This document shows, piece by piece, positions 7,227-58,003 of a stretch of DNA of 64,000 nucleotides. Position 1 is the stretch's first letter. Each line of letters starts with the position of its first letter. This DNA is from Podarcis cretensis. Its lineage: Eukaryota. The position numbers were made by a program, and so were the translations under genes. The stretch spans positions 40,610,001-40,674,000 of the forward strand of contig OX638156.1 in assembly GCA_951804945.1 (NCBI GenBank), in the 5' to 3' direction. The notes beneath the pieces were generated by a model. The model saw only the letters and a program-made list of their open reading frames with translations. It ran no database searches and was not told where the DNA came from.

Positions 7227-7311
7227 GAGCCACAAGGGACATCGGCTCCGCACTAACCCGGATGTGTATGCGGCACCGCAGTATTGAGACCAAGCTGAGG
7301 CAGTTTACCAA
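7227..7311 (+). CDS. MTSS2: MTSS2 exon 4 (IMD)
   Basis: cctcag|GAGCC...ACCAA|gtaagt; (G)ATRDIGSALTRMCMRHRSIETKLRQFT. Confidence 0.95.
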
Positions 7312-19300: not shown

Positions 19301-22300
19301 CTCTCCTGCGCGCCTCGTCCTGCCCCCTTCCTGCCGTCTCATCCTGCCACCCTTTAGCGGCGCTAGCAGTGCTCAGGGTGGCCCCCCATGGCTCACGGGT
19401 TCTCAAACATACTCACCAACTTCCATATGTCGCTACCGCAGCCTGGCACAGCCCGTCAATGCCAACACCCGCCTGTCCAGCGTCTCATCGCATGACTCTG
19501 GCTTCATCTCCCAGGACGCCATGTTCTCCAAGCCACCTTCGCCAATGCCCTCGGACCTCACCAGTCAGGTAAGCTCAGCGGGGCAGCCGCCAAAGGCCAC
19601 AGAATGAAAAGGGGAAGCCCTGGGCAAACATGGCAGCTATCAACACTCTTCTTGCTGTTACTCTGCTGCAGGCAGGCCCAATCCGGTTGTGCATGCACAG
19701 TCTCTTAGGGGAAGTCAAGGGTACTGGTGGCCACAGGACAGACCCCTTGAATGAGCTACCATCCCCCACCCCCTCCAGTTTAATCAGATTCCTCTGCCCT
19801 CATTCCTTCATTTTATAAACCAGGCTGGTTGACTATTTAGGTGGGGTAGGTTCCCAGCACTACATGGGCTGTGCAGCGGATGGGTGTGCCAGTCCCCCCC
19901 ATTTTAGTTGGCTCCAGGTGAGTTGTTGGCAGCCACGTCTCTCTTTTGCCTGGGAGTAGGCCCAGAAATCTGTGAGGAAAAGAAGCCTGCTTCTCTCCTT
20001 GGCCACCTGGTGGTTGCAGAGTCCCAGGAACTGACAGCCTCAACTCTCCAGGGGTGATGAAGAACTCCTACATAGGTGTCAAGGCTTCAGATTTGGGGGA
20101 CCTGCAGCTCGGAGCCTCCCTTGAAGGGCAAAAAGATCTCTCTCATCCCTCCAGCTGAATAGCCAGGTGCACATAATGGCTTACTTCTCTGTGACTGGGA
20201 AAGGGGCTTAGTGCTGCAGGGACTGTAACAAGTCCCCTCACCCACTCAAGTAGCTTTTGCCAGCCTGCTGCCTATTAAGATGCCTGCCCCAGTGTGGCCG
20301 TTCCAGTGCAAATTAAGAGCCCAGAACATCTGGAGGGCTCCAGGCCTGTGAAGGCGGCACTAAAGCATGGGTTTCTGAATCCCACAGCCGTGGAGGGTTA
20401 CAGCCACTCAAAGGTTCTCACGTCCCCATTTCTTTTAAGTGTAAAGAGCCAGCAGCTCTTTCTCTGGGGCTTCTGCAACAGATGGTCCAGAGGGATTTTA
20501 TCCAAGACTTGCAGAGCGAGGGTTTATCAAGCTGCCCTGAGCTGAGGGTGGCTCCAAGAAAAGCAAGTTAAGATATTTGTGAATAATGTGTTTTTGTAAA
20601 GTGTCTCATGGAGGTGCAAACAGAATGTCTGGCCTGCGGGCAGGAAGAGGGCAGCTGCCGAGTGCACCTGTGAGGAAGGTGCAGGAAGTTTGGGACGTCC
20701 CTCTGGCCTCCTGTGTGCCTTGTTTCCACACCCTGGGCGAGAGGAGGCTTTCCCCTCCTGCCTCTCTGCTTCCTGAAGCTAGTCCTTTCCTGTTGCCCTT
20801 GCAGAGGGAGGAGGCCTTCCTTTCCTCGGCTCCTTCCTCATCGCTTTCCCTGCTGAAGAGTTATTGCAGAGGGCCTGGAAGTGCCTGTGCAAAATCCATG
20901 TGAGGCCCCTCATGGGCTTCCCGTGAGCGTGTGTGGCTCCTCCGGTGTTTGCACTGCCTGCTGTGATCTAACATCTGGCTCTTAAGTGTCAAGGCTGGCT
21001 GCCCTGCGCTTGCATCTGCCTCCTCAGGTCTCTCTCTGTCTCTCTCTCTCTCTGCCTGCTGCTTTCCCTCCACCAGCTGCTTAACCAGGTCTCTTCTCTC
21101 CCTTCTCTCCCATATGTCTGTTTTGCTCCTGCTGACCTTTGGACTTTGGGCATGGCAGAAGTCCTCCAGCTCCGCATCGTCCGAGGCCTCAGAAACCTGC
21201 CAGTCTGTTAGCGAATGCAACTCCCCGACCTCGGTCAGTTCTAGCTCTGCCCCCGGGGCATGGTCAGGCGGCCGGAAGGTGACGCGCAAATCGGCAACAT
21301 CCTTCCCACCCACCCACCAACCCACCCATCACACACCCAGGATCCAGGGATACGCACCCCACCCAGTGGCTGATGCACTGCAGGGCTTTAGCATGTCACA
21401 AACCTTTGGGGAAATGGACACCTCCTCCTACTCCTCTAGTTGCCGTCTCCCTCTCCTCTTCTTCATCCACCATTTCTGTTCCCGGTCCCACCTTGTTGGC
21501 TGGCTTTTGGCTCTTGGCTTTTTGATGGTTGTTGTTTTTTTGGTCCTGGCTTGATGATTCCGGTGTGATTCTGGCTTCCTCTGCAGCTCTGCCCAGCCGG
21601 TTGCCACGGGCCGCCCCCTTCCCACCCCCTGCAGGTTGGCTGGGTGTGCAGCGGTCATGCATGTGCTCTGGGTTCTCTTCACCGTGGTTTCTTACTGTGT
21701 TTCAGTGGAAACCCCTGAATGTAGCTCATGTGGCCAGGACTGAAGGAAGCTCCAGAAGAAGCCTTAGCCTGGTGTGTATATTGTGGTGTGTCCGTTTCCG
21801 AGATCTTGACCAGGGGAGTCAGCTGCTCCAGAGCTGGAACAGGAGCCTTCTGTGGCTCTGTTGGCTCTGGAAACATGTAGCTCCAAGCCTAATCTTCCAG
21901 CAGCAGCCTAGGGATTCCCCTCTGGAAAGCAATGGAGGTGATGCTGCAGAGGTCACTCAGGAGCAAGAGCCTCTGCTCTGCACAAGTTCCGTTCTGTTTG
22001 GGGGGTTTTCTGCATCATTTAATATGCTCAATGGTTGAACCCAGCCAGGCTCCCACCCCAGCATTTTTAGGTGCAGGTAGCAAAGGCTCCCATGTGGCCC
22101 CAGATCAAACCCATCAGGCTGTCTGAAGCAGTCGTTCTTTCCTCTTGCACACTGGCATTGTGAGCACATCAAAGTGCTCTGGAAACAGGAAGTGCTGCTT
22201 CCTTCTTCCTGAACACAGGAAGCTTGCATCAGGACAGCTTTGGGATGGCAGAATATGAACTATTTCCCCTCAGCTGACCCACCTGCCCCCCCCCCCAGTC

Positions 22301-25300
22301 TCTGCAATGTCCCTGTGCTGCCATCTCTGAGTCGGGGCAGGAACTGCTTCCCATAAACAAACACCATGTAGGGTTTGGTGTGAGTGGAGTGAAGTGGTGT
22401 GGTGTGGGGGGGGGGGGGCTGAGAACAGCCCCTGCCTGGAAGTCCTTCCATTCTCAGATCAGCCATGAGCTCACTGAGTGCTTTTAGACAGCAGTCTGCC
22501 TTTCAGGACCATTGTATGGATCATGCAGAACTGAATGTGCTGTGTTTTGAACACTCAGTATTTATATAGCACTTTCTGTAAGAGGGAAGATGCATTCACC
22601 TGACTTTCCAGAAAATGTGTTTGAGGAGAGTGAGAGAATTGGGATTCCAGTGGGATGGGGGACACATATTGTTGGAGGTATCATGACTGTCAGCTTCTTC
22701 AAGCTCTTGGGGAAGCAGCCCACACTTTTAAAAGGAAGCAGGCACCCTCCTGGCCTGGCGCCTCCACCTTTCCTGTCTTTGTTGAAACCCTTTTTAAGCC
22801 AAGAGGGGATTTCTCCGTCACCAGCCCAACAGAGCAAAATGGTGGCAGAGCCATTTTGTGATTGCCACAACCCCTGCTCTTTGCCCTGGGGTGGCCCTTT
22901 TGCCAATTCCTCTCTCCCCACCCCCTTGCCCAATCCCTCTCCATCCAGTCTCATCTCCCATTTCTGCCCTATTCCATACCCACCTGACTTTGCACTGCTG
23001 TGCCCGATGTTGGGGCCCCAGCTGTGCCGTCCTACCCATCTCCTCTTGGATTTTGCAGGATTGGTCCAAGGCTAGCCTCTATGAACAGCCGGTGGCAAGC
23101 ACACTGCAGCGAAGGAAGGACCGCGTAGAGCATCTCCGTGAAGCTGAGCTGGGCTCCACCAGCCTGGTATACCCAGGAATCAGCTTGGAGGAAGGCTCCA
23201 GGCCCCGCATGTCCCCGGCCTCCATTGCTGCCAAGGTATAGCCAGCTTCAGTGTCAAAATGGGAGACCGGGGGGACAGGAATTTGGAATAGGTTTGGTAC
23301 CCAGGTGATGGAGCACTTACTTGTCCCAGACCTTAGCTAGGAGGCAACTCCCTGGAGGAGAAGACCCAGGCCTCCTCTGTATATCTTGTTCCAGAAGGAG
23401 ATTTACCCAAATAGCAACTGGCATCCTTGAGCTAGTGCAGAAGGGAATTTCAGGGCAGCAGAGGAAGTTCTCTCAGAGAAGTGTTTTGCAGTTGATGGGT
23501 TTTGCTTATATAAATCGTGAAAAGTTGCCACCCCCAGCATGCCATCGCATGCCAGCAGCTTCCTGTGTAGCCCTTTGCCCTGATGGGGCTGTGGAGCCCT
23601 GGAGGAATTGAATGATGCATGTCTGTTGCTTATACTTCATATGTTTGATGAGGGACCTGCTTGAGTGACCCTGGCAGACATGATGCCTACTCTCACCAGC
23701 TGCTGTATGTGAGTCACTGGGGAATAGCCATGGGAGGGAGGGAGGGCTGGCCACTGCCTTTAGGCGCCACTTTCCTCCTCCTACTTCCACCTTGCCTCTG
23801 CCCCACAAAGCCCCCTCACTTCAGCCCCCCCCCCCCCCAGTACACACAAAAGAAATGGGCATTATTTGCACATCCTGTCTTGAGCAGAGCTGCAATGATG
23901 AGGGGCTCATGGGGTGCATGTGGAATTGGGGCACACAAGTTAGCCTGGGAGAGATCCAGGCTAACCACCCTCATGTCAGCAGCTGCTTGCCCACTAGGGG
24001 TGTTGTGTTCACGGCCAACATAGTTTTGGGGAATGAGATAACTTGATCATTCTCCTATCTCCCCATCTCCACTTGCTTTCCATTAATGTTTTCTGACCTT
24101 TGGGTGCAGGTGGCCTGGCCCAGGCACACACATGGTGCCATCTCCTACAGCTCAGGGTGCCATTTGCTTTGAGACCAGCTCATCACACCTCTCACTCCCC
24201 ACCCCATTTTGTTTCTCCACCAGCATGGGGAGGAGGTGTCCCCAGCCGCAAGTGACCTGGCCATGGTGCTGACCCGAGGCCTGAGTCTTGAGCACCAGAA
24301 GAGTAGCCGGGACTCCCTGCAGTACTCCAGTGGCTACAGCACACAAACCACCACTCCTTCCTGCTCTGAGGACACCATCCCCTCGCAAGGTATCTCTGCC
24401 AATGGGCTTCTTGGCACCCAGGGAAGGGGTGGGGTGGCGTTTTACTTAATGTGGTTGCCCAGTTTAACGATAAATTTTTTTAGGGTGGCATACATGGTTA
24501 TTACATTTATCTATATCTTGCCTCCCCCCCACACCCATGGGATTCAAGGCAGCTTACAACTAAAATAGACACAGGTTATATATATTAACAAAATCAAAAT
24601 ATATACGTATGAAAGATCTCATATAGTGGAGAGTGTTGCGCATGGAGTCCAGCAGTGGCTGCTTGGCTGTGCTGCACCTGCCAGCTGAGAATGCTGACAC
24701 CCACCCTGTCCATCTGTCGCCTCCACAGGCTCAGATTACGACTGCTATTCCGTGAATGGCGACATGGAAGGGGAGAGCCAGAGCGAATTCGACAAATCCT
24801 CGACTATCCCTCGCAACAGCAACATCGCCCAGAATTACCGGCGCATGATCCAGACCAAGCGGCCTGCTTCTACTGCTGGCCTGCCCACCGGCACTGCCCT
24901 GCCCACCGGCGCCACGCCAGGGGTGGCCACCATCCGCCGCACACCTTCCACCAAGCCCACAGTACGCCGAACCCTCTCCAACGCCGGCCCCATTCCCATC
25001 AGACCCCCCATCGTCCCTGTCAAGACGCCAACAGTGCCTGACTCCCCTGGGTACACCGGCCCCACCCGGGTGGGCAGCGAGGAATGTGTGTTCTACACTG
25101 ATGATGCCTCACCAAGCGCCATGGACTTTGCCAAAGCCTCGCCCAAGAGGCTGAGCCTGCCAAACACCGCCTGGGGCAGCAACGTGATGGAGATCTCTGT
25201 ATATGCCGGGAAGCACCTCTCCACAGAGGAGGAGGAGCAGCAGCTGGCAGCCAACCGGCACAGCCTGGTGGAGAAGATTGGGGAGCTGGTAGCCAGTGCC

Positions 25301-25492
25301 CATGCCCTTGGCGAGGGCCAGTTTCCCTTCCCCACGGGGGTCTCTGCCCTCGGCCCCGGGGAAGAGACACCCACTCCTCCCCCGGCGGCCTCCAGCGACC
25401 CTCCGGCGGAAGACATGCTGGTGGCCATCCGGCGTGGGGTGCGCCTTCGCAGGACCATCACCAATGACAGGTCGGCGCCCCGGTTTTTGTGA
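7227..25492 (+). CDS. MTSS2: MTSS2 (MTSS1-like/ABBA), I-BAR/IMD plus WH2 protein; 5'-partial multi-exon CDS join(7227-7311,7625-7716,7976-8050,9606-9614,16269-16426,17490-17597,18431-18528,19358-19568,21159-21233,23059-23235,24224-24389,24729-25492)
   Basis: Manually spliced GT-AG exons give one continuous frame, GATRDIGSALTRMCMRHRSIETKLRQFT...KKARKELLGKGDLQPQLD...DMLVAIRRGVRLRRTITNDRSAPRFL*, which matches recalled MTSS2. Exons 1-3 are not in the window. Confidence 0.96.
7625..7716 (+). CDS. MTSS2: MTSS2 exon 5
   Basis: ctgcag|CGCC...AAAG|gtaaaa; ALMESLINPLQDRIEDWKKTANQLDKDHAK. Confidence 0.95.
7976..8050 (+). CDS. MTSS2: MTSS2 exon 6
   Basis: ccttag|AATAC...AAAG|gtaaga; EYKRARHEIKKKSSDTLKLQKKARK. 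Confidence 0.95.
9606..9614 (+). CDS. MTSS2: MTSS2 9-nt microexon (ELL)
   Basis: Long polypyrimidine tract, then ctgtag|AGCTACTTG|gtaagt; restores KARK-ELL-GKGD. Confidence 0.9.
10397..10619. mobile_element. Tc1/mariner-type MITE
   Basis: TIRs CAGTGGTGCCccaCAAGA / TCTTGcgaGGCACCACTG flanked by TA on both sides; internal GCAAGACGAA repeats. Confidence 0.85.
10853..10988. mobile_element. hAT-type foldback MITE
   Basis: TIR CAGGCATAGGCAAACTC; perfect 8-bp TSD ATGTATTG (10845-10852 and 10989-10996); second family copy at 55507. Confidence 0.9.
11366..11587. mobile_element. hAT-type MITE nested in an older degenerate MITE (~11280-11650)
   Basis: Ends CAGGCATGTCCAAA...TTTGGATACCACTG; perfect 8-bp TSD GCTTATGG. 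Confidence 0.85.
14523..15105 (+). mobile_element. 5'-truncated L1-clade LINE (ORF2 C-terminus plus 3'UTR)
   Basis: [19 protein letters not shown]..., as at 47989-48114; AATAAA and A-tail; 18-bp TSD GAACATCCATAAAAATTA (14505-14522 and 15106-15123). Confidence 0.92.
15401..15760 (+). mobile_element. Sauria SINE
   Basis: tRNA-like head with A box (GGTGGCGCTGTGG) and B box (GGTTCGAATCC), typical body, (ACCTTT)n tail. Confidence 0.9.
16269..16426 (+). CDS. MTSS2: MTSS2 exon 8
   Basis: tttcag|GTAAAGGG...GTGGTG|gtaggt; GKGDLQPQLDNALQDVNDMYLLLEETEKQAVRKALIEERGRFCTFIAYLQPVV. Confidence 0.95.
17371..17429 (-). mobile_element. CR1-type LINE 3' end fragment
   Basis: catagaat...ggaagggacc...catctagtcca motif; related copies at ~27930-27997, 41408-41475 and 53895-53995. 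Confidence 0.6.
17490..17597 (+). CDS. MTSS2: MTSS2 exon 9
   Basis: ttgcag|AAT...CAG|gtggga; NGEITMLGEITHLQGIIDDLVVLTADPHKLPSASEQ. Confidence 0.95.
18431..18528 (+). CDS. MTSS2: MTSS2 exon 10
   Basis: ttgcag|GTG...TGCAG|gtaggt; VIKDLKGSDYSWSYQTPPSSPSSSGSRKSSMC. Confidence 0.95.
19358..19568 (+). CDS. MTSS2: MTSS2 exon 11
   Basis: ctttag|CGGC...CAG|gtaagc; ...QTYSPTSICRYRSLAQPVNANTRLSSVSSHDSGFISQDAMFSKPPSPMPSDLTSQ. Confidence 0.92.
21159..21233 (+). CDS. MTSS2: MTSS2 exon 12 (possible longer form to 21278)
   Basis: tggcag|AAG...TCG|gtcagt; KSSSSASSEASETCQSVSECNSPTS. Confidence 0.9.
23059..23235 (+). CDS. MTSS2: MTSS2 exon 13
   Basis: ttgcag|GAT...AAG|gtatag; DWSKASLYEQPVASTLQRRKDRVEHLRE...RPRMSPASIAAK. 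Confidence 0.95.
24224..24389 (+). CDS. MTSS2: MTSS2 exon 14
   Basis: caccag|CAT...CAAG|gtatct; HGEEVSPAASDLAMVLTRGLSLEHQKSSRDSLQYSSGYSTQTTTPSCSEDTIPSQ. Confidence 0.95.
24729..25492 (+). CDS. MTSS2: MTSS2 last coding exon (Pro-rich region plus WH2)
   Basis: ccacag|GCTCAGAT...; GSDYDCYSVNGD...EDMLVAIRRGVRLRRTITNDRSAPRFL, stop TGA at 25490-25492. Confidence 0.96.
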
Positions 25493-26048
25493 TGGACTCT
25501 TCCCCAGCGCCTGCTCAGTGCCCACCCGGTGGCTGGAGAGCAACCAGAGTCAGGACTAAACCAGGGGAAATGGAAGAGAAGTAAACGAACCACAAAAGGC
25601 AAAGCCACTTTATGGAGATTGTGTCAGAGTCTAGATATAAAGGAGACTAATCTATACGCCTTTGCTAACAAACCTGCACAGGCACAGCCTGGCACTGAAC
25701 TGGTTTTGGAGCCTCTTTTATACACATTGTTTTTCCATCTGCTGCCCTGCCCAGGTTTCCTTTCCCCTCCTGCACCTTCCTTCATCCTGGCCTGCAGAGA
25801 GACCGGTTGTTGCTGCTGCTGCCGCCACAAGGAGGGAGGCCATTCCCTTGCTCCATGATTTTCAGGGAGGAGTGAAAACCTGAACTGGATCTAGCAACTA
25901 CAGTGTTCTTAGTATAAGCTACACACACACGCCCCAACACACTTGCACATGGCAAAGAAATGGAGGCTGCCGTTCCTAGAGAGCACCCACCTCCTCCGGA
26001 CAAAAAAAATGCACTGTTAGTCCTGTGCTGAATCCTCCCTTCACAGCT

Positions 26049-26049
26049 C

Positions 26050-26083
<34 letters not shown>
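26049..26083. repeat. (TCTG)n microsatellite in the MTSS2 3'UTR
   Basis: About 8 TCTG units. Confidence 0.9.
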
Positions 26084-26084
<1 letters not shown>

Positions 26085-26748
26085 TTCCAGTTATTTTCTG
26101 TTTGCCATCTGTTTGTATCAGCTACTTCAAGAAAGACTTTACAAGCAGCAGTTAACACCCCCGTGAACAATCCCGGAAGCCTCTCGTGTTCCCAGGTGGA
26201 TCCCAAATGCGCAGCTGGAGGAGAGGGTGCAAGGGGCAGGGAGTGGACAACCTGCAGGCATGTCACCAGGCAGGAGGGCCCAATCCCCCCCAACAAGAGG
26301 TTGAGTCACAGCCACAGACTTATTGGCCTCCGTGGCTCTACTGGGAGCAGAGTGGGCAGGTTGGTTATATTCAGGAAGAGGATTGTGCTCTCGTCCCAAG
26401 TGGGGTAGGAGCTCTGTAATCTGAGAGGCCGAGGGTTGGGCTGCTGTTGATCTGCCCTCAGTGCCACTTCAGGACTGGGCTTGAACCTTTTGATAAGAAT
26501 TGGTAGTGATGGAAAGGTGAAGGTGGATGGCTGTTGCTCTGGAATAGCTGTAGCTAAGTGGATATAGGGGCAAAGGAAGTCTTTCTGTGGATGGTAGGGA
26601 GGACTTTGGTAATTGAGGACCTTAGAGGGTTTTGAAAGCAGGGTGTGTGCAAAGACCAAGGGTGTCTGCTCTTGGAATTCTCCTACAACCATCTGACAAG
26701 GCCAAAGGTTGTTAAACTGATGCTCACAGGTTCTGGTGTCACTGGAAA

Positions 26749-26880
26749 GGCTGTAGCAGAGTGGTAGAGCACCTGCTTGGCATGCAGAAGGTCCCAGGTT
26801 CAACTGTTGGCATCTCCAGATAAGAATAGGAAAGATCTTTGTTGTGGGAGGCTGCTGCCAAGCAGTGTTAGGCGGAGTGC
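26749..26880 (+). mobile_element. Degenerate tRNA-derived SINE in the MTSS2 3'UTR
   Basis: GGCTGTAGCAGAGTGGTAGAGCACCTGCTTGGCATGCAGAAGGTCCCAGGTTCAA; A/B-box remnants, no intact cloverleaf. Confidence 0.7.
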
Positions 26881-29111
26881 TGGGTCTGGGACAGTGTCCT
26901 CTGCCTTTTCCAATGTGAGCCTGTTTTGGCCAAGTATGGGTATGGTTATGACTAAGCCTGTGAGTGTGTGGCAGGGTGCCTCTTCTAACAGCATCAAAAG
27001 GGGCCCAAATTTGTCAATATTGGGTGGATACTTTGAAAGGGGTTAAAAGTATCTGCAGAGAGGGAAATAGCTGAACCAACCCTCTTGGTTGGTTCGTTTA
27101 CCTTTGGCGATGTTGCTGCTGCTTAGCCAGATCTGCTATACGGTCCACCATATCGCATGAAATTAGAGTCCCAGCAGAAAGTGAGGAAAGAATTACCACA
27201 AGCATTTAAAAATGGGGGCAGAGGGGATTTACAGAAACAGACCAGCTCCCTTGTTCTGGTTTTGGCCTCCAGATCTATAACCAAATGAATATTCAGCACA
27301 GCTTCTTCCTTTGTGCTTGGAGCTGAAGGAGCATGAGTTGGATTGCAGCTCCCAGCCAGAAACTCCAGCTTGGGCCATGCAGCTGCTGTAAGAATATCCA
27401 CATTTCTCACTGTTTTAGACACTGTTTTCACCTTCCAATGTTATTAAGACTCCCATCAATGCTAACCATGGGCTAGGCCGGTTTCTGGGCCTGATGGGAG
27501 TTAAGAGTTCAGCAGGGCTGGAATTTAGGGCACGCAAGCCAGGTAGTCAGAAGGAACATAAATACAAATAGTGCCTATCAACTTTTTAAGCTGTTTTGCT
27601 TACTTCCACCTGCCCCCCCCCCCAATTTGGAACAGAAGAATTTGCCCCGCAGAAACAACTTAAGGGTTTGGATAAATTCATTGAGTTTATTTATATTAGT
27701 TACGTAATCTTATACCCAGATCTGGAGAGTGCAAGAGACTTGGATCTACCTTGTGCTCACCCTGATATTGTCCCAGAAAGTCTAGAAATCGGCTCTGTTG
27801 GCAAATGGAAAGTGATGTTGGGAAAGGGGACAGTCTTGAAAGAAAGAGAAAGTGATGGGGAAAGTCAGTGGCTGGGAATTAAGGTGGTCTAAAGTGAGGG
27901 GGAAAGAGGGAGACGCCTTTCCCTGGAAGGAATCAGAGAATTGTAGAGTTGGAAGGAACAATGAGGGTCATCCAGTCCAACCCTTTGCAATACAGAAATC
28001 TTTTGTCCAACATGGGGCCTGGCCCTGGGTTAAGAGTCTCATGCTTTACAGATCAAGCTTCCTCAACAAATGAGGGTCCATTAAACGGCCCCTGCTGCAT
28101 AACCTCCACCTTTTGTGTTTGTTGGGCTCAAGAATGAGCATGTCTTGCTTTCCTCTCCTGGGATTGTTGAGTATCCAAGGATCACTGAACAGCACAGATG
28201 TAGCACATATGGGGTGGCTAAGTGGGGGAGGCAGAGCCCATGCTAGACATTAGGGGCTTCCTTTGTCCTTGGACTGGCCAGGCATTCGAGTACAGAGCTT
28301 ACCCATGCAAAGAAAAAAATGAAAGATGGGCTTGTGACAATTATTCCAAGAGAGATGCCACCACATTTCTCATAGCAGCAGCATGGTGGTCAACAACCCT
28401 TTCTAAAGTAGAGAGAGAGCACAGCTGTGGACAGCGTTGAGTGCTGTGTGGTGAGGCACAAGCAAAGCACAGCGGTGGTGAATACAAACCAGTCAACTCA
28501 AGGCCCCTTGCAAGGGCTGGGGAGCCTAGAAGCCTCTGAGAAAGCACAACTGCGCCTGCTCCCTCTTGCTGGATCCTCCCCGTCTCCCCATCCTTAGTTC
28601 CTGCAAGGCACAGCAGGGCCTGGTGTTGTCGTTGTTGTACATAGAGCCACAGCAGTCCCCTCCACCCTCCCCACAGCCCAGACGTCTTATGTGCGCTTGC
28701 GTGGGTGTCACGTTGTAGCCTCCTTAACTCTTATACTGTCGTAGTAATAACAGTTTAGTTTCTAACCAACCAACCTTCCTGTGGGTGCCCCCCTCCTCCC
28801 TGTCATGGCCAGAAATGACAACAGTGACAATGCGTGAGAAATGTTTGCATTTTGCTTTTTATTTTTATTTTATTTTTTTGTACAGAGGAAAAAAAACCCT
28901 TTAAAATGTCTCTCTCAACTGATGTTAACTATTCTGGTGCTGTTAACTTGTTCTTTTTTTCTAATTTATTTTCCCTACCCCCCCCCCCTTTTGCTAGCAG
29001 CCCTGGCCTTACCCACCCACCCTCTTTCATTCTTAAAGTTAATTATCCTCTCCCTTCATTTAAAATAGTCACTGCTACAAGTAACGAATGCACTGTGAAG
29101 ATTCCAGTATT

Positions 29112-29117
29112 AATAAA
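29112..29117 (+). terminator. MTSS2 polyadenylation signal AATAAA
   Basis: ccagtattAATAAAagttgtactgtaattaa at the end of an AU-rich block. Confidence 0.75.
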
Positions 29118-29424
29118 AGTTGTACTGTAATTAACGCAAATTGGTTCCTCCCACCCCATGGGGATACCCATTCTTACTCTCCTACGCATAAGAGGAAGAA
29201 AGCAGTTGTTTCTTCAGGCCAAGCACACAACATCCACAGGTGGTTTTCCTACCTGTAACCCTCCTGGAATCACAACACAAACGCTAACACACATTTGTCC
29301 CAGCCATTCCAATTCTGAATTTATGGTTACAGAAATCGAAAGGTAAGTGTATTTTTTAAAAACAAAGCACCAGCTTCTATAGTTCTAGGCTAGTAGGGGT
29401 TCTTAAGAGAGATGTCTTAAGGTG

Positions 29425-29600
29425 TATTTCAGACGAGCATAAGAGCCTGCTGGATTGTAGCAAAGACCCCATCCCGCTCTGGCAGAGACAAACCAGATGC
29501 CTGTAGGAAACTCAAAGGCAGAGCACAACAGAAACTCCTCATGTGATTCCCAGCAACTGGTATTCAGAAGCACACGGCCTCCAACAGTGGAAGTAGCAAT
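29425..29600 (-). mobile_element. Old CR1-like 3' fragment in the intergenic gap
   Basis: taagagcctgctggat...cagatgcct...cccagcaactggtattcaga; similar copy at ~39438-39695. Confidence 0.55.
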
Positions 29601-31385
29601 CAATAGCTGCGTCTCTCTGTATCTTCTCACATGGAAAGCAATAAGCATGTGTTGTTGTTTTTTAGCCTTCTGGGGCCTGCCTTTTTCTAATGATGCTGCT
29701 CTAAAGCCCCAGCCCCTGGACTACGGGAAAGGAGCTGGGCCTTGCTGATTTCAGTACCAGCCAGTGCATCAATCCCCAACCCTCTTCTCACAGCCATTTG
29801 CATATTTCCAACACCTTGTAGCAAGAATCATTTCCATGCCCATAGAATCTAAAGAGCTGCTTAGTATCCAAGTGTGCCTGCTTGTGTATGTGGAGAAGTA
29901 ACAGGGGTGAAGTCTGAGGGGTATTATTTCTGTAGCTTCCACAAGCTTTACCACAGTCTTTGTCACGGACAGTTGCCCTTCACATCAATCCCCACCCCTA
30001 ATCACTGAACCATTTCAAGGGTGGGCTGTGTTAGGCCTCTCCACCAGCCCCAACCTTAGTGAGGCAGCTGGGCAGCAGCAGTCCTCAAAGGCTACAACTG
30101 GTCCACTCTGGCCTTGTCTAAGAGGGCAAGAGACTTCCCAACCAGACACAGATTACTCCCTTTTCCGCAATCCCTCACTGGCTACTGGCTCCCTTATGAT
30201 GGGATGGGCTCTCCTTTTCTTGGAGCCAGAGAAGGTCCAGTGTGGCAGTTTGACATAGCATGTCAGAGCCTAGCCGAAAGAGAGATTTTCAGCTGACAAG
30301 AGAATTTGCTTAGTTCTACTTCTGAAATGGATGATATCCAATCCAGAACTCCCACATCCATACATGGAAGGAGAAATAGTCCTTTAAAGTAATTGTTCAG
30401 TGAAGACATTTGAAACAAAAGCAACCCGAAGCACCAGGAAACTTTTGAAAAAGGCCCAGAAAGCCTAGCCCAATTTCTAGATCTGAAATCACCTGGCTTT
30501 GGGCTTAAATAAAATACTGCTCATAAGTTCTCTGTAGCCTGATCCGGCAAGTGCCCATTCCACCAAGGGGCAGTGCTGCCAGTTCCACTGTATTTCTAAC
30601 TGGACCTCAACTAAAGGTGAGCTCATGACTATTAAAACCAGACACTGATCTCTCAGCAGCCAGCACATTTTGAAATAAACATCTGGTCCCCATAATATCT
30701 GAAGGGCATTTGTATCTCTGCAAGCAAGTATCTGTGTTTAGGAGCTGCAGCCAGTCACAAGTTCCATAGACATCTGCACTGTCCTCCAGAGGTCAGGAAC
30801 CTGTGCCCTCCAAATATTTGCAAACAGCTACCATTATCCCTGACTATTGGGCCAGGCTGACTCGGATGAATCAAACCCCTATATTACATTTAAAACAAGT
30901 AGTCAGCCCACCATAGAAACAAAGAGATCTGTCATTCACATGTAATGCAGCCCGAAGAATGGCTCGGAGGGAGGGAGTGCAAAAGGTTTGCTTTTGAGGA
31001 AAGTAAACCTAACAGCAACCTTATCTTCTCTGAAGGGGTAGGGTAGGGTAGGTTGGGAGACAATTCCAGAACTTAAGTATAAACCTCCTTAGGACAGCTG
31101 AGAGGGCTGAACAAGTCTTCCACAGCAGAGTAAATGGAGAGTAAGATCTCTAGAGAAATACAGAGCCTAATACTAGACACTCCAAGTGCAGGGAAACGTG
31201 GCTTTCCTCTGCAGCCAAAAGGGCAAGAAGTGCATTTTAAAATGAATGACAAGATTGATCCTCCCATGAATTTAATGTGCCATTGGCAGAGCTCCTCCCT
31301 AGCTCATGTCCCCAGAAGCAGGTAAAATTCATGAGAGAAGTCACCAAACAGGTTTGTCAGCCAACCTTTAATCCAGATGCTGGGT

Positions 31386-31391
31386 TTTATT
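31386..31391 (-). terminator. SF3B3 polyadenylation signal AATAAA
   Basis: + strand TTTATT, about 535 nt past the SF3B3 stop. Confidence 0.65.
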
Positions 31392-31925: not shown

Positions 31926-32066
31926 TCAGAAAGCATAGCGGGTGCGGATGTCCTCCAGCTTCTTGGACACCTCTGGTGGGGTCCTGTCCAGCTCTTCAGA
32001 CACGTTCTTCTGCTTGTTGGGCTCCATGGAGTTGAACTGCTCACACAGATCCCCATCAATGACATT
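31926..32066 (-). CDS. SF3B3: SF3B3 last coding exon
   Basis: [49 protein letters not shown] at 31928-31926. Confidence 0.96.
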   Translation of the reverse strand, partial: NVIDGDLCEQFNSMEPNKQKNVSEELDRTPPEVSKKLEDIRTRYAF

Positions 32067-35000
32067 CTAGCAAGAGAAAGAAAGGGTGGGGGGCTATTTT
32101 AGAAGCTGCAGCCCATGGAACGAAGGAGGGAATGGGCTCAAGCACAGAAAGCAGACCCAAAGCACAGAGAACAAGAGGCTTGTCTAAGAGGCCCAAAGAT
32201 TCTCCACAAGAGTCAGAATGAATAAAAGCAAATTCTCTCTTTAAAAAAGTACAGGTATTCAGCAGACATTTGCCTAAAAGTGAAAAATGAAGGTGTCCAC
32301 AAGTCCATGGAATGGGGGGGGGGGGGCACAAAAAACGAGAAAACTCCAGCAAAAAAACCAAACTCGAACTATCTTGCTCAAGATCACCCCAGGGCTTGGC
32401 ATGTGGTGAACTTGCAGCTTTAGAGCTACACTGTTAATGCTGCAAGTCTGGAAATGAAGACTTAACCGTGCTAATGCAAAAATAACCTGCTGCATGACTC
32501 CTCATTGTCACAGAAGCATTTCCTGAAATGCAGATTCATATGGGGGGGCCAGAAACCGAATTCTGACACAATGGACAGTGCTGCCCTATCCATGATGTAC
32601 AGGTGACCCAAGAGAAACACATGGTTTCCAAAGAAAAAAGTAGACCCACCTTGATACCTAGGTCAGTTCTAACAGGATGCTACCATCACCAGGGAGAACT
32701 GCAATAGGGAATTGGGGCTTGAAATCTATACATATCACTTAGAAAAGATAAACGTCCATTCAGACAAATCACCCAGATGGTGAAAAAGAAAAAGTCAGAG
32801 AATCACATAGACACATAGGCCCCATTGCTGATTACCCTTCTTAGCAAGCAGAATCCTGTCCTGGAAAAGCCATTCCAGCAACCTCAGCAGATGCTCTGAC
32901 CAAGCATAAAATGCAGGGGGAAATTTGGCCTTCACATTGGCAACTTTTACCCATGAGCAGAGCTCAAGTGCTTACTAGCATATGATGGACACGTAGCAGA
33001 GACCCACAAACTCAGCCTACCTTCACTGGGAAGTAATAGGAGCGGAAGCTGAGGTGGTCTCGTCCACAGAGAGGAGGGTGTTCAGACCTCAGATGCATCT
33101 CAACATGTTGGAAGAAGTCATGATCCTGAAAAGAGAGAGCGCCATCAAAGGGAAAGGAAAACAGCTGGAAGCAGCAGTGTCAGGCCACACCCGGGGCCAG
33201 CACTGAAAAGAGGAGCAGCTGTGATTGGTAAACTGGTTGACAACACACCACCTGAACAAACCTCCTAGAGCAGGGGGAGGCAACCTCAGGCCCAGCGGTT
33301 GGATGCTGACCAATCGTCTTCTCAATCTGGCCTGTGGACGGTCTGGGAATCAGAGTGTTTTTACATGAGTAGAATGTCTCCTGTTATTTAAAATGCCTCT
33401 CTGGGTTATTTGTGGGGCATAGGAATTGGTTCAGGGTTTTTTTCAAAATATAGTCCAGCCCACCACATGGTCTGAGGGACGGTGAACCGGCCCACAGCTA
33501 AAAAATATTGCTGACCCCTGTCCTAGATAGAGTGAGCCCTCTGCAGGCTGGCATACATCATTTTGGGGAAGGAATTTACATAGCAGAAAGTTCATCACAA
33601 AGCACTGGTCCAATGTGGATTTCCCTCTTCGGAAACCGGCCTGGACTTCAGATATCACCTTATTTGTATCTGCCCATTCATCCAGTCTCCCAAGAAGGAG
33701 CCTGGCATATAGTTTAGAGGCTACATCTAACAAACTAATGGGTCTATAACTGGTAGGATTTTTCTAATCACCCTTTTTGTATATTGGGGCAATTATACTC
33801 AGCTTCCACCCTTCCGGTATGTAACCTGAGCTGTTAATATATGAAAACTGTTTTGCAAAAATGGGCAACCAGAAATCCGGTCTTATAAATCTCCATTGGG
33901 ATCATGTCTTCTCCTAGAGCTTTATTGGTTAATTGGCTTATGATTGGGCGTGATGTCTGGCCATTCTGGCAGTTATAACAACTGAGTATAGTAAACTTGT
34001 GAGGGTGAGTCAGAGCGGGGGCCATATATTCCTGTAAAATATGTCACCCAGTCCTTTCCTTGGACAGATGCTTCTAACGAGTAGCCCAGCCCATTTGTAC
34101 CTTGGGCAACCAAATGCCTAAATTTCCGTGAGTCCTTTTTAGCTCTGCTTCATTCTGTCATGCAATAAAATTTCAGTCATGCCTCATGGGCAGAGCCAAC
34201 TGGCAAATGTGGGCGTCACCTGTGCCAGCAACGGTTTTCAGGGTACATTATATTGCCAGATATCAGTGTATGCACTGGGGGAGGGGGGAGACATACAGAG
34301 AGCAAAGAGAGCCATAGGCAGCTCAGGAGATCCAACAGCAGCCAAGCTCAGTATGTGCATTAAAGCAGATCCATTTCTGATCCACACAAGGAAGAGCCAA
34401 GAGGCCAACTGTGGGCAGGGAGTGGCATAGCCTCCCCACCCTTTCAGCTTTGTCTTCCATCCTCCCATAACTCACTGTCACTACTGCAGGGCATTAAGTG
34501 CTCCTGCTGCACTATGTAGATGAACAACTCTTAATATTTCCATCATACAAGAACTTCCTACCTCATGTGATGTAAACGGGACCAGAATGCCAATGCCCCC
34601 AGATAAGGTCGTATAGACAAGAGATTCAGAGCCTCCGGGGATTAGAGTTGTCTTCTGCAGGGACAGGACTGTTTCCCCTACATGGTAGTTCATAATCACC
34701 TCTGCCTGAAAGTAAGACAAGCAAGACTTCAGCAGGTGACCTAAGATAATGCATTAAATCAAGACAATCTCATTTTCATCAAAGAAAACCTACATTTATC
34801 ACTTCCAGTGGTTGGTGAGGACATTTCTAAACACACTTATAATGCAAACTTGCAACAGTGATTTCCTATGTGTAATGCTTGGGGAGGGAGGTGCTATTAG
34901 GCTACTGGAGTACATTGGACCCCTTCCATTATGAGCACAGTATTTCATTAGGACAGTATTTCACATTTCTAAAATGCAGTGTCAATTAAATTATCCCCCC

Positions 35001-38000
35001 CCCCTAAAACAGGAGGACTGTTGAAATATGTCTTAAAATTTGCTACGAACCTCAGAAGGGGTGCTATGAACCTCAGAAGGCATTTCAAATATTTGCAAAA
35101 ATAAATAAATAAATTAAGCAAACCTGAATCACTTCATACTCCCTATACTGGCTCAACAATTGCATGGGGTCAGTTGTCCTGGGTTGTTTCTCCCCCATTC
35201 TGTTTCAAGTTTCATTTAACTAACAGGGGTCCAATGTTCCCCTATTGGAAAGGGAAACTGTCCCTCCTCTCCCCAGGAACTTCTCAAAGCAGAGTAGGGG
35301 GAAATCACAAAAGTTTTGCCTGTATCATGTTACAGCATTTCAAGAACACGGAAGAGATTTTTCTGTGAACTTTTTAAAAATCTCCATTCTTTGTGCACGA
35401 AAAACAACCCTAATTACAAAGCTCCAAAGGCATCTGCTTGACCACATGAGTACAATTTCACTCTAGGCAGGGGTTTAACTCTGCTCCACACTGCATTTAC
35501 ATAGACACAGAAGTTAATTTCAAAAGCCGTTTCAGGTTCCAACAGGCAGACAGTCATGTTATTAATTCCATAGGGATACTCTGGCTTAAAAAAAAAAATC
35601 ACTCTTAACATGTTTTTTATCAGTAGATTTATATATTCTTAAAAAGGAAGTTGCCAGTTCCAGAAATAAGCAGGTAATGAAGTTAATAAATAACCAGAAA
35701 ACTAGAAAGAGCCTTCAGTTTCTCACCTGAGGAAGCACCCCCTTCCCTACACCAAAGTTACCTTTTGAGAAGCCCCATTAAGAAGGCCTCTATCCCACAA
35801 CGCCTTGTTTCCAGTTGGGTCCTCGTCTACCTCATCATTTGTGTTGGGCGGCAGCCGCACCTACAGGAGGAGGCATCAGAAGAGTCAAACTCACGCATGG
35901 CCTCAATGGCAAATGGGAATAACTAGAAGGTGTTGTAAGCATGAATTCAGAAAAGCCCAAACAAGCCAACACTCTGCATGTCACATAAAACCACAGTGAG
36001 TGCCCCAACCTGGGTTCACAGCATGTTTCTCCCCCAACAAACCATGAGAGTTAGCCAAGGTTTGTTCTTGACTCATTGCTTGTGCTTGTTGGAAGCAAAC
36101 AAACCAACAGGATGAGGTCTGGAAGTCACAACAAGCCGTCGCAGCAGCAGTAGTAGGAGAGGAGCAAAGCAAGAACTTTTCAGCAGCATGCACCAACACA
36201 ACCACATAAATCCACAGTCTGTTTTTAGCTGTGGGCTGACTGTGATGTGTGATCCAAGCCACAAAAGGAGAGCAACCAAGCATATGTCTCCATTAACAGA
36301 ACAGTCACAAGGTGTGCACTTTGGCAGAAGAGTGTCCAGAGGAAGTTGCCACCGCCCATGACAGCAGCGTGTGAGTGTAGGAGAAAGGTCTCAGGCCACC
36401 AGCTAAATGGTGCTTAGCAAAAGGCTGGGGTTTCACTGGCATCTCCCACATCAGGGAATCAAAACGACAGCAGGACAGTTCTCAAATGAGCCCCAGGAGT
36501 TTCCTGGCTGCCTTCAGGCTGACTCACCACACAGATGTTGCCAAACTTGTCAGCCCCAGCCACTGTGTCATAGTCGAGGAGGCAGGCAGTGGTGACCCAG
36601 CGGGGGTGGGTGTCATCTGCAAAAATGATCAGCTGGTTCTCATTCCTCTTGTAGCGCACCCAGATGAAGCTCTCCTGGACATCTGAGACGATCACTCGGT
36701 GCCCAATGGTCTGGATCCCACAGATGTAGTTGGCAATGTGCTGGGAAGTGACAGCAATTCAGAAAAGCAGTTCAAAAAGCAGAAAAGGGAGGCTGTTCAA
36801 GGCAAGCCCTAAAATCCCTTCCTGAGCCTTCATGAAATCTGAACATCACAGGCATCTCTCTGCAAGGCTATGATCATTTATAGTGCAACAGCTGTAGCCT
36901 TCTAAGAGAGAAAAGGGGAGTTGGGACATTGCTTATCTGTGATCACTTTCTATATCTGAATGTGCACCGAGAACCAGTGCTAACATCATTCTAGGTAGCT
37001 CTCCTGATTCTAGAATACTCAGAAGGCCAAACAAACAAGGGAAAAGCAAATATGTGAAATATGAAAATCTTCCTATTTCTACTTTCTATAACCCAGCACC
37101 CGCCAGATGTTTGGGACTACAAATCCCATCATCCTTGACCATTGGCTACGCTGAAAGCTGATGCGAGTTGTAGTCCAAAACATTTGGAGGGCTCCAGGCT
37201 GCTCTGTGCACTTTTGTGCAGACTGTTCACTACACCATTATAAAGTTGGTGTCAGGAATGACAAAAAAAAATCCAAAACTTTCAACTATCACCTTATGTG
37301 AATCATAGGCCATGGCTTCAGAAACACAAGACCACACCTTTGAGCCTCAGATTCTCAATTCTATTCAAAAGGGAAAGAAAATGATTATCTATCCAGTGAA
37401 ATGTAATAAGTTACAGAGAGGGTGGAAACAGCCCTGAAGACTTGCCCCTTAAGCAATTTAGGAATTGCTTAATTCCTAATTTTTTTAAGGAAGCCAAAGT
37501 TCTGGGCAAGAGAACGTTTCCCTGGAGCTTGAAAAAAGCTCAAAGGTTTCAACCAAATTTGTTAAAAGCGATAGGGAATGTCTGCCTTAGGAAATGCAGC
37601 ATCCAGGAGATCTGCGCACACAAAGACACACAACACATTCTAAATACCTTATTCTCACACTTCCGGAGCAGCTTCTTCTTGCCCAAGTCATATACCCGCA
37701 AGAGTTTCCCCACGCCAATGAGCACTCTGCCTTGGAAGGGGGCAATAGCAGCTGGTACCTCCTCTACTGGGGTCTGAACAGAAATGAAATGAAAGAGAAG
37801 TAGCCTTTGTCAAGCAGACAAAACAAAGATCATTAATAGTACCCTCACTGCATAGATGAAGCCCTGCCACTGCAAGGATGGGCAAGTTTCAGCCCTGACA
37901 AAGGATGCAGATCCACCACCACTGAGTTTTGGGGCCCACTTGAATCAAGTACCCATTGCATCCACTGGGGAAGAGATGGACATTGCAAGCCCACAAAGAC

Positions 38001-41000
38001 AAACTGCCTCTAGGAAGGGGCCTCCTAGTCCAGTTCCTGCCCAACAAAAGAACCTGCCTCCTCACAGGTCCAGGCTGCTAGGTATCAACAAGGAGGAAGA
38101 ATTCAACTTTTGCAGTGCTCTGTACATTGTTGGCTTTCTCCACGTCAACAGAAGCCAAAGTATTCAGCAACCACCATCAGATGCTGCAAAAGCTCAAGTC
38201 AGATCACCTATAAATGACCCATTCACAGGTCTATGCTTGTTTTGCTTCAAATGTCCATTAGATAACTGCAACTGTCACACCATTACTATAATTGCTCAAA
38301 TTTCCCTGGCAGCAAGCAATGTGCATACATTTTGCATGGCAAACACTGGCAAAATCCAATGTGATTTTTGATATGGCTGCTGTTTTGTGGACAGAAGGAA
38401 AACCATTTGTGGAGTACTTACTAACAGTGATGGTCCTCTGTTCCCAACCAAGAGATTTCCGTCCCAAAGAGTTGGGTCTCATCAGTACATTTTAGCAACC
38501 TCTTGGCAAGCCCCATCCATGTTCATCTTCCCAGATTCCTCCCCCTCCAACCCACTAGTGGAGGAAATTCTCACCTTGTGCAAGAACTCAAGCTTCTCCC
38601 CACTGTTTATCAACTTATAGGTGTAGACAAAGCCTCCAGCCACAGAGCGTGGGTTCAGGATGAGGTCCTTGGCTACGCCCACTAGAACATGCCAGTCGTC
38701 ACCACCATTGGCAAATCTGCACACTGCCACACTGTAGAGAGCCAGAACGATAATGTTACTTGACAAGACAAGGGAAGACTGGGAAGGCAAAAGAAGCAGT
38801 TGCTTCACAGCAACGAAGAGCAAGAGAGAACACTTTGGGGGAAGGCAGCAGCGAAGAGTATGTTGTACCATTTGCTTGTGACTAAGGAAGCATAGAAATG
38901 CAATACACAAACTGAATGAGACTTAATTAGGGCTGTTGTCAGCTGAGATCATGGTAAATGACTGCCATGTATCAGCCCCAAGACCCCAAACAACTTCAGG
39001 TAGACCACATTTTTGCTTTATTTAATTAGATTCTAGACTCATCTAGCTACAATAGCACAAGTAAATATTTGGTTTGACTGGTGTACTTCAAGTATGACCA
39101 AAGTAAGTATACAAAAGTATAAAGAGTATTTCCATTGTTTAGCAGAAAGGGCAGCATTCAAAAGGGTAACTTGCTTCAGAGGTGCAGAAACTGTTCCTTA
39201 CCTGAAGGCAGCTTCATTTTGCTCCAGCTGGACTAGATCTAAAGTGTTTCCTTGGATGGGGTTCATCACCCGGACAACAGACGCCCATTGTCCATTTCCT
39301 GCCTTTGGGGCACCAAAGATGGACTCGGGAAGGTTCTCGTTCAGAAACGCTGCGGCCATCTCTGCAGCTAGTTCCCTCTCATCTTCCCCTGCGGCTTCCA
39401 CCATTTCCTGCAACGCACAAAGGGGCAAAAAAAGGACTGTAAGAGCTGCCTGCTGGTTCAGGCCAAAGACCTATCTCTAGTGCAGCATCCTGTTCTCACA
39501 GTGGCCAAAGCAGATGCCTCTTGGAAGCCCAAGCAGGACCTAATTCATTCCCAAGAACTGGCATTTAGAGGCATGCTGCTTTTGGCAATGGAGACAGAAT
39601 ATAGTCATCATGGTTAGTAGGCAACTGATAATATACTTCTCCGTGAAGTTGTTTAATGCTCTTTTAAAGCCATCCAAGTTGGTGGCCATCACTGCTTCTT
39701 GTGATTATGATGATTAGGCAGTCCTAACTGAGGTGCAGAAAGTACGTGAGCTTTTCCATGGGTTACAAAAGCAGACATGCCTCCTCTCTAGAAAGAAAAG
39801 TGGTCACTGCTCTGCACTGTGTTGCGACAACTTCCCCACCAAGTGCAGCAGCAACAAAAGAAGCTCCAGCTCACAGAATCCTGTCCCTGCCCTTTTTTGG
39901 TGAGAGCTGGGCCTGAGGCAGAAGCCAGGCATGTTACCTCCGCCATCTGCTGCTTCCTTTGGGCTTTAGTGGCCTCAGTATAAGCATTGTGGTCCGTCTC
40001 AATGATGATTAGGTTGTTGCTCTCAGGGTGGATGACGAACTTCCTAGGAGTGTACTGCAACGGGAAGGCAACCTGGTTGAAGACAGCTCCAAGCTTCTCC
40101 AGGGCCAAAATCCTGTAGGAGCCAAAAAAGTTGCAGACATTAAGCTTATTCCAGTGAGCCACCTTAAAGGAACTAAAAGGACATCCAGGCCAAACAATGG
40201 AGCCTCCCTTGTGGGCAAGCATCTGTGGCATGAACCACCTTCCATCAAGCAGAAGTGGGACCTTTTCAACCTGAAAACTAACAACTTGCCTGGTAGCCAT
40301 CAGTGATGGGGAGCTCCATGAGTGTGTGAGTGAAAGGCAGAGGAGGAAACGGTCCTTGCGTCCCTCCTCCTTCAGTCTGCTTAGTGGAAGGAAGAGCGCT
40401 ATACCTGCACTTGCATGATGGCTAAAGACCAGTTACTTTTGCAGGCTTATTTACAATGACCACCCCTGACAGCCAATTCACAGTACTTTGTATTCTATGG
40501 AGCTTCATGCAGGAAAGCCTATGGGTGTCAGCATGCCAGGCAACCTCCTTTAATATTCAATATCAGGAGAGACAGCTGCCTCCTGCCCCTGAAGAGAGAT
40601 CAAGTAGACCTTCAACAAAACCAACAAGGCTGCTTTTTCAGAACCACCCGATGCTTTGTGAAAAAGTAGAGCAGCCTCTGGTGTACACTCCACAGACTGA
40701 CTACCACCAAGGAATAATCTCCTCCCAACAACCAGTCATGCTTCGGGTGGGATGCAGTGGGTGGGTGGCTGCCATGTACAGCTCTCCTTCCCATCTTGAG
40801 CAACTAGGAAGGAGGCCAGATCAAGCTACTCAATGCAGAGTGGGTAAGCTACCTTACCCATGCAAGGTCATGTAGAAAGGAGGCATTCAGGGCAACCTTT
40901 TTGGGCACCAGATGCCCCTGCTTTGCTCAGGAAGGAGCTTGGGACAGACAAGCAAGACAGACAGACAGTCCTGTGTGCCAAGAGAGAAGGCAAACAGGCT

Positions 41001-44000
41001 CCATTATTTGTTTCCTTTCCCACCGCTGGCATTTTGATACGAACCTCAGTGTGTTTGTTGAGATGGCTACTATGCCCTCTGGACACTGCTCTGAAGCAAA
41101 GCCAGAGGCAAACTCCAACGTTTCATATGAGAGGGGTGTTAAGTGGAAGCGGGACTGATAGGAGTAACTCAGCCAAGAACGGCTTGACATGGCCAGCACC
41201 TGGAGCAGGAGGAAAAGAAGAGAGAGAAAACTCAGGGAGAGAACAGCAAATGGGACAGAGCAGCTCACACCTCTGGGAACCAAGCTGGCTGCCTTCTTCT
41301 CCTAGCAGTCTATAATCAAAGGCTCTGTTGGCAGGGCAGAACTAATTACAGGCTCCAGGAGTCCCCAAGCCAGCAGCATAAGAGAAGTTGTGAGGGGGCC
41401 AAATTGAGATTCCTGCATTGCATGGTGTTGGACTAGATGACCCACAGGGTCCCTTCCAGCTCCACAACAATATGATCCTGAAGGCCACAAGCCTGGCTAC
41501 TTTATCACCAACTTTCAAAAACACCTTGCACTCTGTAAATCAGGTGCAATGACTACAGCAGCAAGAGCCAGGCAAACAAACTATATTGAGTACTTCCTCC
41601 TCCTTTAATGCCCCCCTCCCTTTCCCACAAGCAGCTAAAATGAGCAGGATCCAGAAGCAGGCCAAGGTATTTCCTTTCCCCTGGCCTGATCAACACTCTT
41701 GTTTTCTCCCTCACTCACACCCCCATCCAATAGCATGTATTTTCCCTCTGTACTAGACGGTAAACAAGGAATTTAGATGTGAACTCATCCCGCCCCAAAT
41801 TTCTAAAAGATCTTAGTCACCAGATTCACAGTCCTCCTGAAGTTTTTGCTCCTCCCCCTCCAGCTTTTCATGAGTGCACTCCTCTGATTCCCCGCTCACT
41901 CACCGCTTCTTGGCCTTGCATCCGGACTCGGAAGAGCTTCACAGGGCGCGAGCCCAGATACCTGGTCCTTGTGTCAGAGAGGTCACCAGTAACTGGATCA
42001 AGGACAGTTCGGAGAAGCACACCGTTCTGGGTTACAAGGGAAGATGAGCAAAGCAAGGTGTGGGGAGAGGGACAAGGGCAGGCATAGAGAAAAAGAGCAC
42101 CAGATGAACTCAGAATACCAATGTATCTTCAGCTCCTGACTCTGGAAGTCTTACTATTTCCAGGTTCTCTCTGGCATGTACAAAATTAAGCACAACACTG
42201 CTACAAAGCTGCTGTTTCCTCCTTTAACAAACTAAGAAAAGGTTTTTTTGTGAAGCAGCTTAAAGTGTAGGCTACTGCCACTTCCCACCTAAATACAAAG
42301 ACCCCTGACCTGCTGGAAGATGAGCTCTAACACTTCCACCCTCCTCCCTGGCAGACAAAAGGTATCCTTCACAATGGGATTAGAGTCTGCCTTAATAAAG
42401 CGGGAGAGGGCTCCATTGCTCGGGAGCTCTGGAAGAGTGAAGAAGGTGGCAGGAGGGACGCAGTGTTCCATTCTGGCAGGCCTTCTGGGAGGGTATGTGG
42501 AACGGGTCTCTATAGGGTTGTACAAACTCAAGAGTATGGCTTCCCACACAGTCCAGTCAAATGCAGCAAGACCTGGTCCAATCCCATATATCGAGGATCC
42601 AGCAAAGGTTCTGGGCAGTAATTGCTCACCTGCAAGCCAATGTTCAGGTACAAGAAGCCAATCGAGCCCCGCTCTCCCAGCTCATCCTGCTTCTCAGCTC
42701 CACCCATTTCCACAATACACAGTGATTCTGGCTGGGCAGGGAGAGCTTGCATACTCAGCGGCTGAAGACAGTCCTAAGGGATGGAGAAGGAAGACACCAT
42801 TACTAAAGCAGAGAGAAAGAACAAAGCATAACACATAAGGTCTTTGTTGCTACCCTGAACCACTTCAGACATCAGCTGAGGAACTGTAAATGGCTGGATT
42901 CTCCTTTGTACAAAAATGCCTGGCACATTTGAAGGAGAAGACTAGGCTGACCTGCCAGTTTTCTATGTAGGAGGGCATTCAACCACATCCCCCAGCAGTC
43001 TGAAGAGACAGATTGAAGAAGCACATGGCAATGTTGATTATGCCAACCAGCTCAAAGTGTTTCTCCATTTGGAGCAATCTGTGGGAAGATTCATTTCATC
43101 TGAGGAAGTCTTTGAAGAATCATTTTTAGCTCTGGCCTTCTTTCAGGCAACCCACTATCTTCCAAAAGTTTGGAATACAACTCCCATAATCCTCAGCCAA
43201 ACTGGCTAGGGCTGGGGTGAGTTGTAGTTCAAACCATCTGAAAGTCACCAGGTTGGAGAAAGCTCATGTACAACATACACCTTGATTATTGTGAATTGAC
43301 CTATTATACGCATGACCAGAGGCTTGGATGCGCCTTGCTGGCATCAAGCCCTTTGGAATGCCTGAACCTTCAAATTAAGAGGCAGGGTATCAAAAAAAGA
43401 AGGGGAGGGGAGAGAAAGCAACTGCAGTTTGGGTTGGGAAAAGAGCATGCTAGAGTTCAGCTGGAGTCAGCTAAAATTGGAAGACATATTGGGGTACTGG
43501 AGGAGTAAGCCATGCCTTTGGGGTTTCTGACGAAGCACCAGCAGTTGTATTGCCCACTTTATGAGTCTGCTTGCTTCCAATATGCTCTCCTTTCTTATTA
43601 GATAACAAACCAAAGTCAGTCTAGTGCATTCTCACATCCAAAGAAAGGAAAGCCCTGCTAACCACCCCTGGAACTTCCTCTCACTCAGTTTTTTTTTTGG
43701 GGGGGGGGTAGTTTTGGTTACAATACTTTAATTCGACTCTCAGGAAGCACTTACAGAGGGGTCGAGGGAAATGATGCGCACAGTGTTGTCCACCAGCCCA
43801 ACAGCAAGGAACCGGGAGCGCTGCTCTCCTGGGGGAACGTTGGCCAAGCTCATGCACACCACGTCAGCAGACATCTCCTTCCTCTCTGTGTATTCATTCA
43901 GCTGCCCTGACTGGTGTGGAAAAAAGGCACAATGGAGGAAGGAAGTCACACCTGGATTAGCAGAACCAGACTCATTTCAGATCAAGAGCTGTGCAATAAA

Positions 44001-57942: not shown

Positions 57943-58003
<61 letters not shown>

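Follow-up and report, generated by a model that had tools for sequence, protein, structure and literature searches.

The slot held by IL34 between SF3B3 and MTSS2 is empty in a lacertid genome, likely reflecting the published loss of the gene in squamates

The window, i.e., the whole 64 kb stretch of DNA that was analysed, holds MTSS2 on the forward strand followed by SF3B3 on the reverse strand. The two genes lie tail to tail, and their stop codons are about 6.4 kb apart. The features that matter for the argument are given below.

7220..25492, + strand: coding exons of MTSS2, corresponding to residues 67-687 of the Podarcis muralis isoform
About 24701-25492, + strand: last coding exon of MTSS2, with a WH2 motif (E 7.9e-06) and the stop codon at 25490-25492
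25493..29135, + strand: likely 3' UTR of MTSS2, taken as the interval from the stop to the AATAAA hexamer
26745..26830, + strand: high-copy short interspersed repeat, with a summed depth of 107,550 in the bin 26575-26789 and loose ends at 26760-26803
27930..28018, no strand assigned: high-copy repeat with a summed depth of 214,447 and a second copy at 41407-41467 (80% over 61 nt)
29112..29117, + strand: candidate poly(A) signal of MTSS2, AATAAA, called from the sequence
29135..31380, no strand assigned: the slot that IL34 occupies in human, chicken and tuatara, here free of gaps and with no IL34 sequence detected
29430..29591, - strand: high-copy repeat fragment at which short-read contigs break, with loose ends at 29591
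31386..31391, - strand: candidate proximal poly(A) signal of SF3B3, AATAAA, called from the sequence
31926..32066, - strand: last coding exon and stop of SF3B3, matching the C-terminus of SF3B3 in the PDB
31926..64000, - strand: gene body of SF3B3, with CPSF_A and RSE1 beta-propeller Pfam matches; its 5' end lies outside the window

Both the identity and the orientation of the flanking genes were observed directly. MTSS2 of Podarcis muralis (P0003), compared with the window by tblastn, aligns in 10 collinear pieces over 7220-25489. On the other side, the stretch 32066-31929 (-) is identical at 46 of 46 positions to residues 1172-1217 of SF3B3 from the PDB (E 2.6e-25) and is followed by a TGA stop at 31928-31926 (-); a second stretch, 63462-63968 (-), matches residues 22-135. 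An Rfam scan of the window returned the C/D box snoRNA SNORD111 and nothing besides. It lies at 62888-62970 (-) in an intron of SF3B3, which we take to be its host gene, and scores 46.6 bits (gathering score 46).

The lacertid affinity of the window is likewise a direct observation. The last exon of MTSS2 is 97-98% identical to that of Podarcis lilfordi and P. muralis (3 of the 120 matches listed), versus 87-91% for the other 117, which are from geckos, skinks, crocodilians, turtles and ostrich, in a list drawn from the 8000 best word-sharing candidates, with close relatives hidden in clusters. Thus, we conclude that the window is from a lacertid close to Podarcis. By taxonomy, Podarcis belongs to the Lacertidae and to the Squamata; that is, the host is a squamate.

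The candidate AATAAA signals of the two genes (29112 on the forward strand; 31391-31386 on the reverse strand) are separated by 2268 nt, in agreement with the distance of about 2.25 kb in the preliminary description. Further AATAAA or ATTAAA hexamers are found at 30508, 30631 and 30674 (+) and at 31372, 31276 and 28970 (-). The place between the two genes is taken in most other land vertebrates by IL34, an immune cytokine gene. The synteny given in the preliminary description, namely SF3B3 followed by IL34 on the same strand and then by a convergent MTSS2, in birds as well as in human, is borne out for human and chicken by Table S4 of PMC13005343; the window shows the same arrangement in reverse order. 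In the window, the MTSS2 and SF3B3 orthologs are adjacent and convergent, as in the published squamate IL34 deletion. The interval between them is short and free of gaps, and would be compatible in size with a compact gene, the chicken IL34 coding sequence being 534 nt long (Table S9 of PMC13005343).

The span between the two stop codons, 25490-31930, was scanned with the Pfam model of IL34 (PF15036.11, 158 positions). None of the six frames translated with read-through of stops was matched, nor was any of the 187 stop-free segments of at least 26 amino acids (72 + 115). The likely MTSS2 3' UTR (25493..29135) gave no IL34 match and no other Pfam match over cut-off. The claim that IL34 is missing from this slot thus holds, with the flanks identified, no motif found and no profile match in any frame or segment. 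Weak matches, such as those to Agd3_C, EGF_4, EpoR_lig-bind, Toxin_9 and HVO_2753_ZBP, were rejected as chance, the best having an E-value of 0.0099 and all falling far short of the cut-offs. The same IL34 model had no match in a phage and 14 prokaryotes used as controls, a result that is uninformative. Outside 25490-31930 the window was covered by a motif scan rather than by the IL34 model. A search of the whole 64 kb in six frames found none of the four full motifs KLQY, YFPINY, HPSWKY and RPKALLDNC, for which the preliminary description had reported no occurrence in the interval; motifs taken from that description make for a weak test. A shortened version of the last, RPKA, occurs once, at 32153 (+), inside an intron of SF3B3.

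The sensitivity of the Pfam scan bears on the route by which the gene was lost. Among five exon pieces of the flanking genes, three were recognised and two were missed, there was no true IL34 as a positive control, and the HMMER filters discard most matches above E 0.1. A badly decayed IL34 remnant could therefore escape the scan, and one may ask whether the gene became a pseudogene and wore away at its original position through many small deletions, with faint remnants that may persist in the interval. Given a long time, either route leaves a short and empty interval. Against such erosion, no IL34 signal was seen even in frames that tolerate stops, and the exon alignment in Table S9 of PMC13005343 lists essentially no aligned bases in 14 squamate rows: of the 534 nt of the chicken IL34 exons, 0 are aligned in 13 of them and 6 in the other. 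We regard decay in place as rather unlikely. It is the main alternative route to the present state, and would still be a loss; the route alone differs.

We then considered the continuity of the assembly across the slot, where the preliminary description had noted no gap; the window indeed contains no N. Contigs were compared from 4 of the 24 sequencing runs listed (X3, X5, X8 and X16), all of them contigs of short-read type. Left out were X15 and X17-X20, guessed to be RNA (shares 0.30-0.33), and X21-X24 (shares 0.00-0.04). None of the listed runs is recorded as RNA. X3 comes from the same study as the possible source of the window and was not counted as independent. The remaining three, X5 (study P2), X8 (P3) and X16 (P7), are from three other studies with three other organism labels, and their contigs are collinear with the window over 2.27 kb. 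In X5, record 22 spans 27943-29571 and record 23 spans 29561-31920 and on; in X8, record 27 spans 29548-31920 with two indels; in X16, record 3 spans 29199-29600. Among the listed pieces, none covers the entire 2.27 kb. A position was considered bridged when a contig extended 31 letters on each side of it. By this rule, and with the contigs listed, the only unbridged positions between the two signals are 29571-29578 (29571-29576 when X3 is included), and these lie inside the high-copy repeat fragment. The intervals 25500-25900 and 28500-29200 are uncovered in some runs, which is uninformative given that the record filter drops records. Many short joints between contigs were also seen; these were set aside as cross-matches that link repeat copies, with 20-44 letters on the shorter side.

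These data speak to the possibility that an assembly collapse between similar repeat copies, at about 29540-29590, removed a real segment that carries IL34. Each of the DNA-size runs, X3, X5 and X8, does break inside the repeat, and on these alone 29542-29576 is unbridged. However, record 3 of X16 passes through the break. In addition, records 14 and 15 of X3 share 26 nt at this point, as contigs split at a repeat typically would, and the depth beside the repeat is flat on both sides, at 95-112 in X3 and 13-14 in X5. In Podarcis muralis, long reads cross the locus according to PMC13005343. A collapse at the slot is therefore unlikely, and to our judgment extremely so.

The same contigs reveal small differences in length. 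At 29942, 33 extra letters are present in X5, X8 and X16; at 27156, 35 extra letters are present in X8 and in one contig of X3; and about 88 nt at 31047-31136 are skipped in X8. Small indel turnover is thus ongoing in the interval between SF3B3 and MTSS2.

Three high-copy repeats lie between the stop codons, near 26760-26803, 27930-28018 and 29430-29591. The first presumably belongs with the tRNA-derived SINEs of squamates, which it resembles, and we take the second to be a CR1-like 3' end. The third, at 29430-29591, has a summed contig depth of 55,102, versus about 110 alongside in X3 (approximately 500-fold, at 85% likeness), and its depth is likewise raised in X5 and X8. It too is presumably a CR1-like 3' end, of the kind found in lizards. 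Near 29445-29430 (-) it has what looks like a decayed octamer-like end; CR1 3' ends carry a hairpin and an octamer microsatellite (PMC4316615). Segments over 29430-29591 have no Pfam match to a reverse-transcriptase family. The preliminary description had called part of the interval a CR1 fragment. That a high-copy repeat is present stands, while the name CR1 is putative, given for the likeness to lizard CR1 3' ends and for the decayed octamer-like tail. We also considered this fragment as the junction of a deletion. This is unlikely, since the fragment retains a likeness of at least 85% to many copies and would thus be far younger than an event on the squamate stem. The repeats now seen in the interval are probably later insertions and not the cause of its shortening.

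The preliminary description had asked whether an absence of IL34 from this position had been reported before. It has, twice. Pinheiro et al. (eLife 2020; PMC7717901) describe IL34 as lost in Squamata, with CSF1R, CSF1, CSF3R and CSF3 largely present in reptiles. That work drew on gene databases for 59 species, and its available passages hold no locus-level analysis of squamates. Salve, Sonal and Vijay (BMC Biol 2026; bioRxiv 10.1101/2025.07.03.663111; PMC13005343) devote a results section to the SF3B3-MTSS2 interval, which they find significantly contracted within conserved synteny and crossed by long reads in Naja naja as well as in Podarcis muralis, and they rank IL34 as their strongest case. 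In their Table S2, all 30 annotated squamates, including four lacertids (Podarcis muralis, P. raffonei, Zootoca and Lacerta), have IL34 as 'Missing', and all 5 outgroups have it as 'Intact'. Table S4 lists SF3B3-IL34-MTSS2 synteny for tuatara and others besides human and chicken; IL-34 stands in its squamate rows as well, where any mark of the loss is presumably a matter of formatting.

The deletion described in PMC13005343 and the state of the window have in common the gene, the flanks SF3B3 and MTSS2, a contracted interval free of gaps, and the clade. There is no difference of substance from what that source reports, and the window adds at most one lacertid genome, which may already be among the 261 assemblies searched there. 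In the viper Crotalus tigris the slot is also without IL34, but an intrachromosomal rearrangement has placed CNOT1 next after SF3B3, whereas in the window SF3B3 and MTSS2 remain neighbours. The ghost shark slot also lacks IL34, which would be an independent loss.

The preliminary description had left it between deletion and relocation in this lineage. As for relocation, a gene that moved and diverged beyond nucleotide-level detection would have been missed by BLASTn and by whole-genome alignment, and the published claim of loss would be overturned. IL34 does diverge fast (57 +/- 18% identity to human), the published searches of assemblies used BLASTn with queries from human and chicken, and turtle, alligator and vipers have a rearrangement on one side of the locus (PMC13005343). 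Moreover, the exon alignment of Table S9 also recovers 0 of 534 nt in coelacanth, which is listed with IL34 in both PMC7717901 and PMC13005343. However, for tuatara, whose IL34 is ENSSPUG00000006291 (Table S8), 377 of the 534 nt are aligned by that same method; the gene is unannotated in all 30 squamates; it could not be assembled from any of 6 read sets (Table S7); and the workflow of PMC13005343 included a protein-level step with OrthoFinder and DIAMOND. We therefore give a relocated, surviving IL34 only a very slim chance. The deletion half of the earlier suggestion is supported, and relocation is unlikely; the change is not confined to this lineage, as both sources describe it across squamates.

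Our preferred reading is therefore that IL34 was removed by deletion on the squamate stem, leaving MTSS2 and SF3B3 tail to tail, to which we assign a probability of about 0.93. The date follows from the literature, in which IL34 is absent across squamates and kept in tuatara. A single segmental event in the common ancestor of lizards and snakes would account for the empty slot. The window likely presents the already published squamate loss as seen in a lacertid genome, and is a confirmation and not a discovery.

According to a review (PMC12660708), IL-34 is the second ligand of CSF1R; neurons make it, and in mice it maintains the microglia of cortex and hippocampus. Reptiles, too, are believed to have microglia. 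Loss of IL34 would leave CSF1 as the only known CSF1R ligand, so that CSF1-only signalling through CSF1R, which the preliminary description had proposed, is a reasonable inference for squamates. Microglia and Langerhans-type cells would then depend on CSF1, which would have to take the role that IL-34 has in cortex and hippocampus. Squamates would thus be natural IL34 knockouts, in which one could ask whether CSF1 took over in brain and skin; this value is already in print, and the window confirms its basis. The published evidence from the receptor is weak. Table S10 of PMC13005343 reports 'relaxation' of CSF1R, put forward there as indirect evidence, in 3 of 5 squamates, with no lacertid among the species tested, and also in 3 of 27 other species, namely tuatara (k 0.57), zebra finch and dog. 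Because tuatara keeps IL34, and because zebra finch and dog show the same signal, the argument of that paper for co-evolution of the receptor is weakened.

One run hints at transcription through the slot. The listed contigs of X16, which is guessed to be RNA and differs from the window by about 3.7% substitutions, cover at least 1996 nt of the 2246-nt slot, with a depth of 46-137. Its depth at the proximal piece of the SF3B3 3' UTR is 118, close to that in the slot (window 29199-31812). If X16 is RNA, either SF3B3 or MTSS2 may have a long 3' UTR that takes in the slot, or may be read through into it, a weak hint from this one run, and the ends of MTSS2 and SF3B3 would then be closer than 2.27 kb.

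Elsewhere in the window, other repeats were noted. An intron of SF3B3 contains, at 44953-48338 (+), LINE-like reverse-transcriptase and C-terminal fragments, which we take to be L1/Tx1-like; two related pieces within it, 46036-46665 and 47388-48017, are 66% identical, and another related piece lies at 14522-14883. A decayed stretch resembling a LINE reverse transcriptase is present at 33446-33763 (-), also in an SF3B3 intron. Lastly, a 137-nt repeat at 10853-10988 and 55507-55643 has two copies that match each other in either orientation (90% and 80%), and a third copy lies around 37098-37193; this pattern is like that of a palindromic, MITE-like element.
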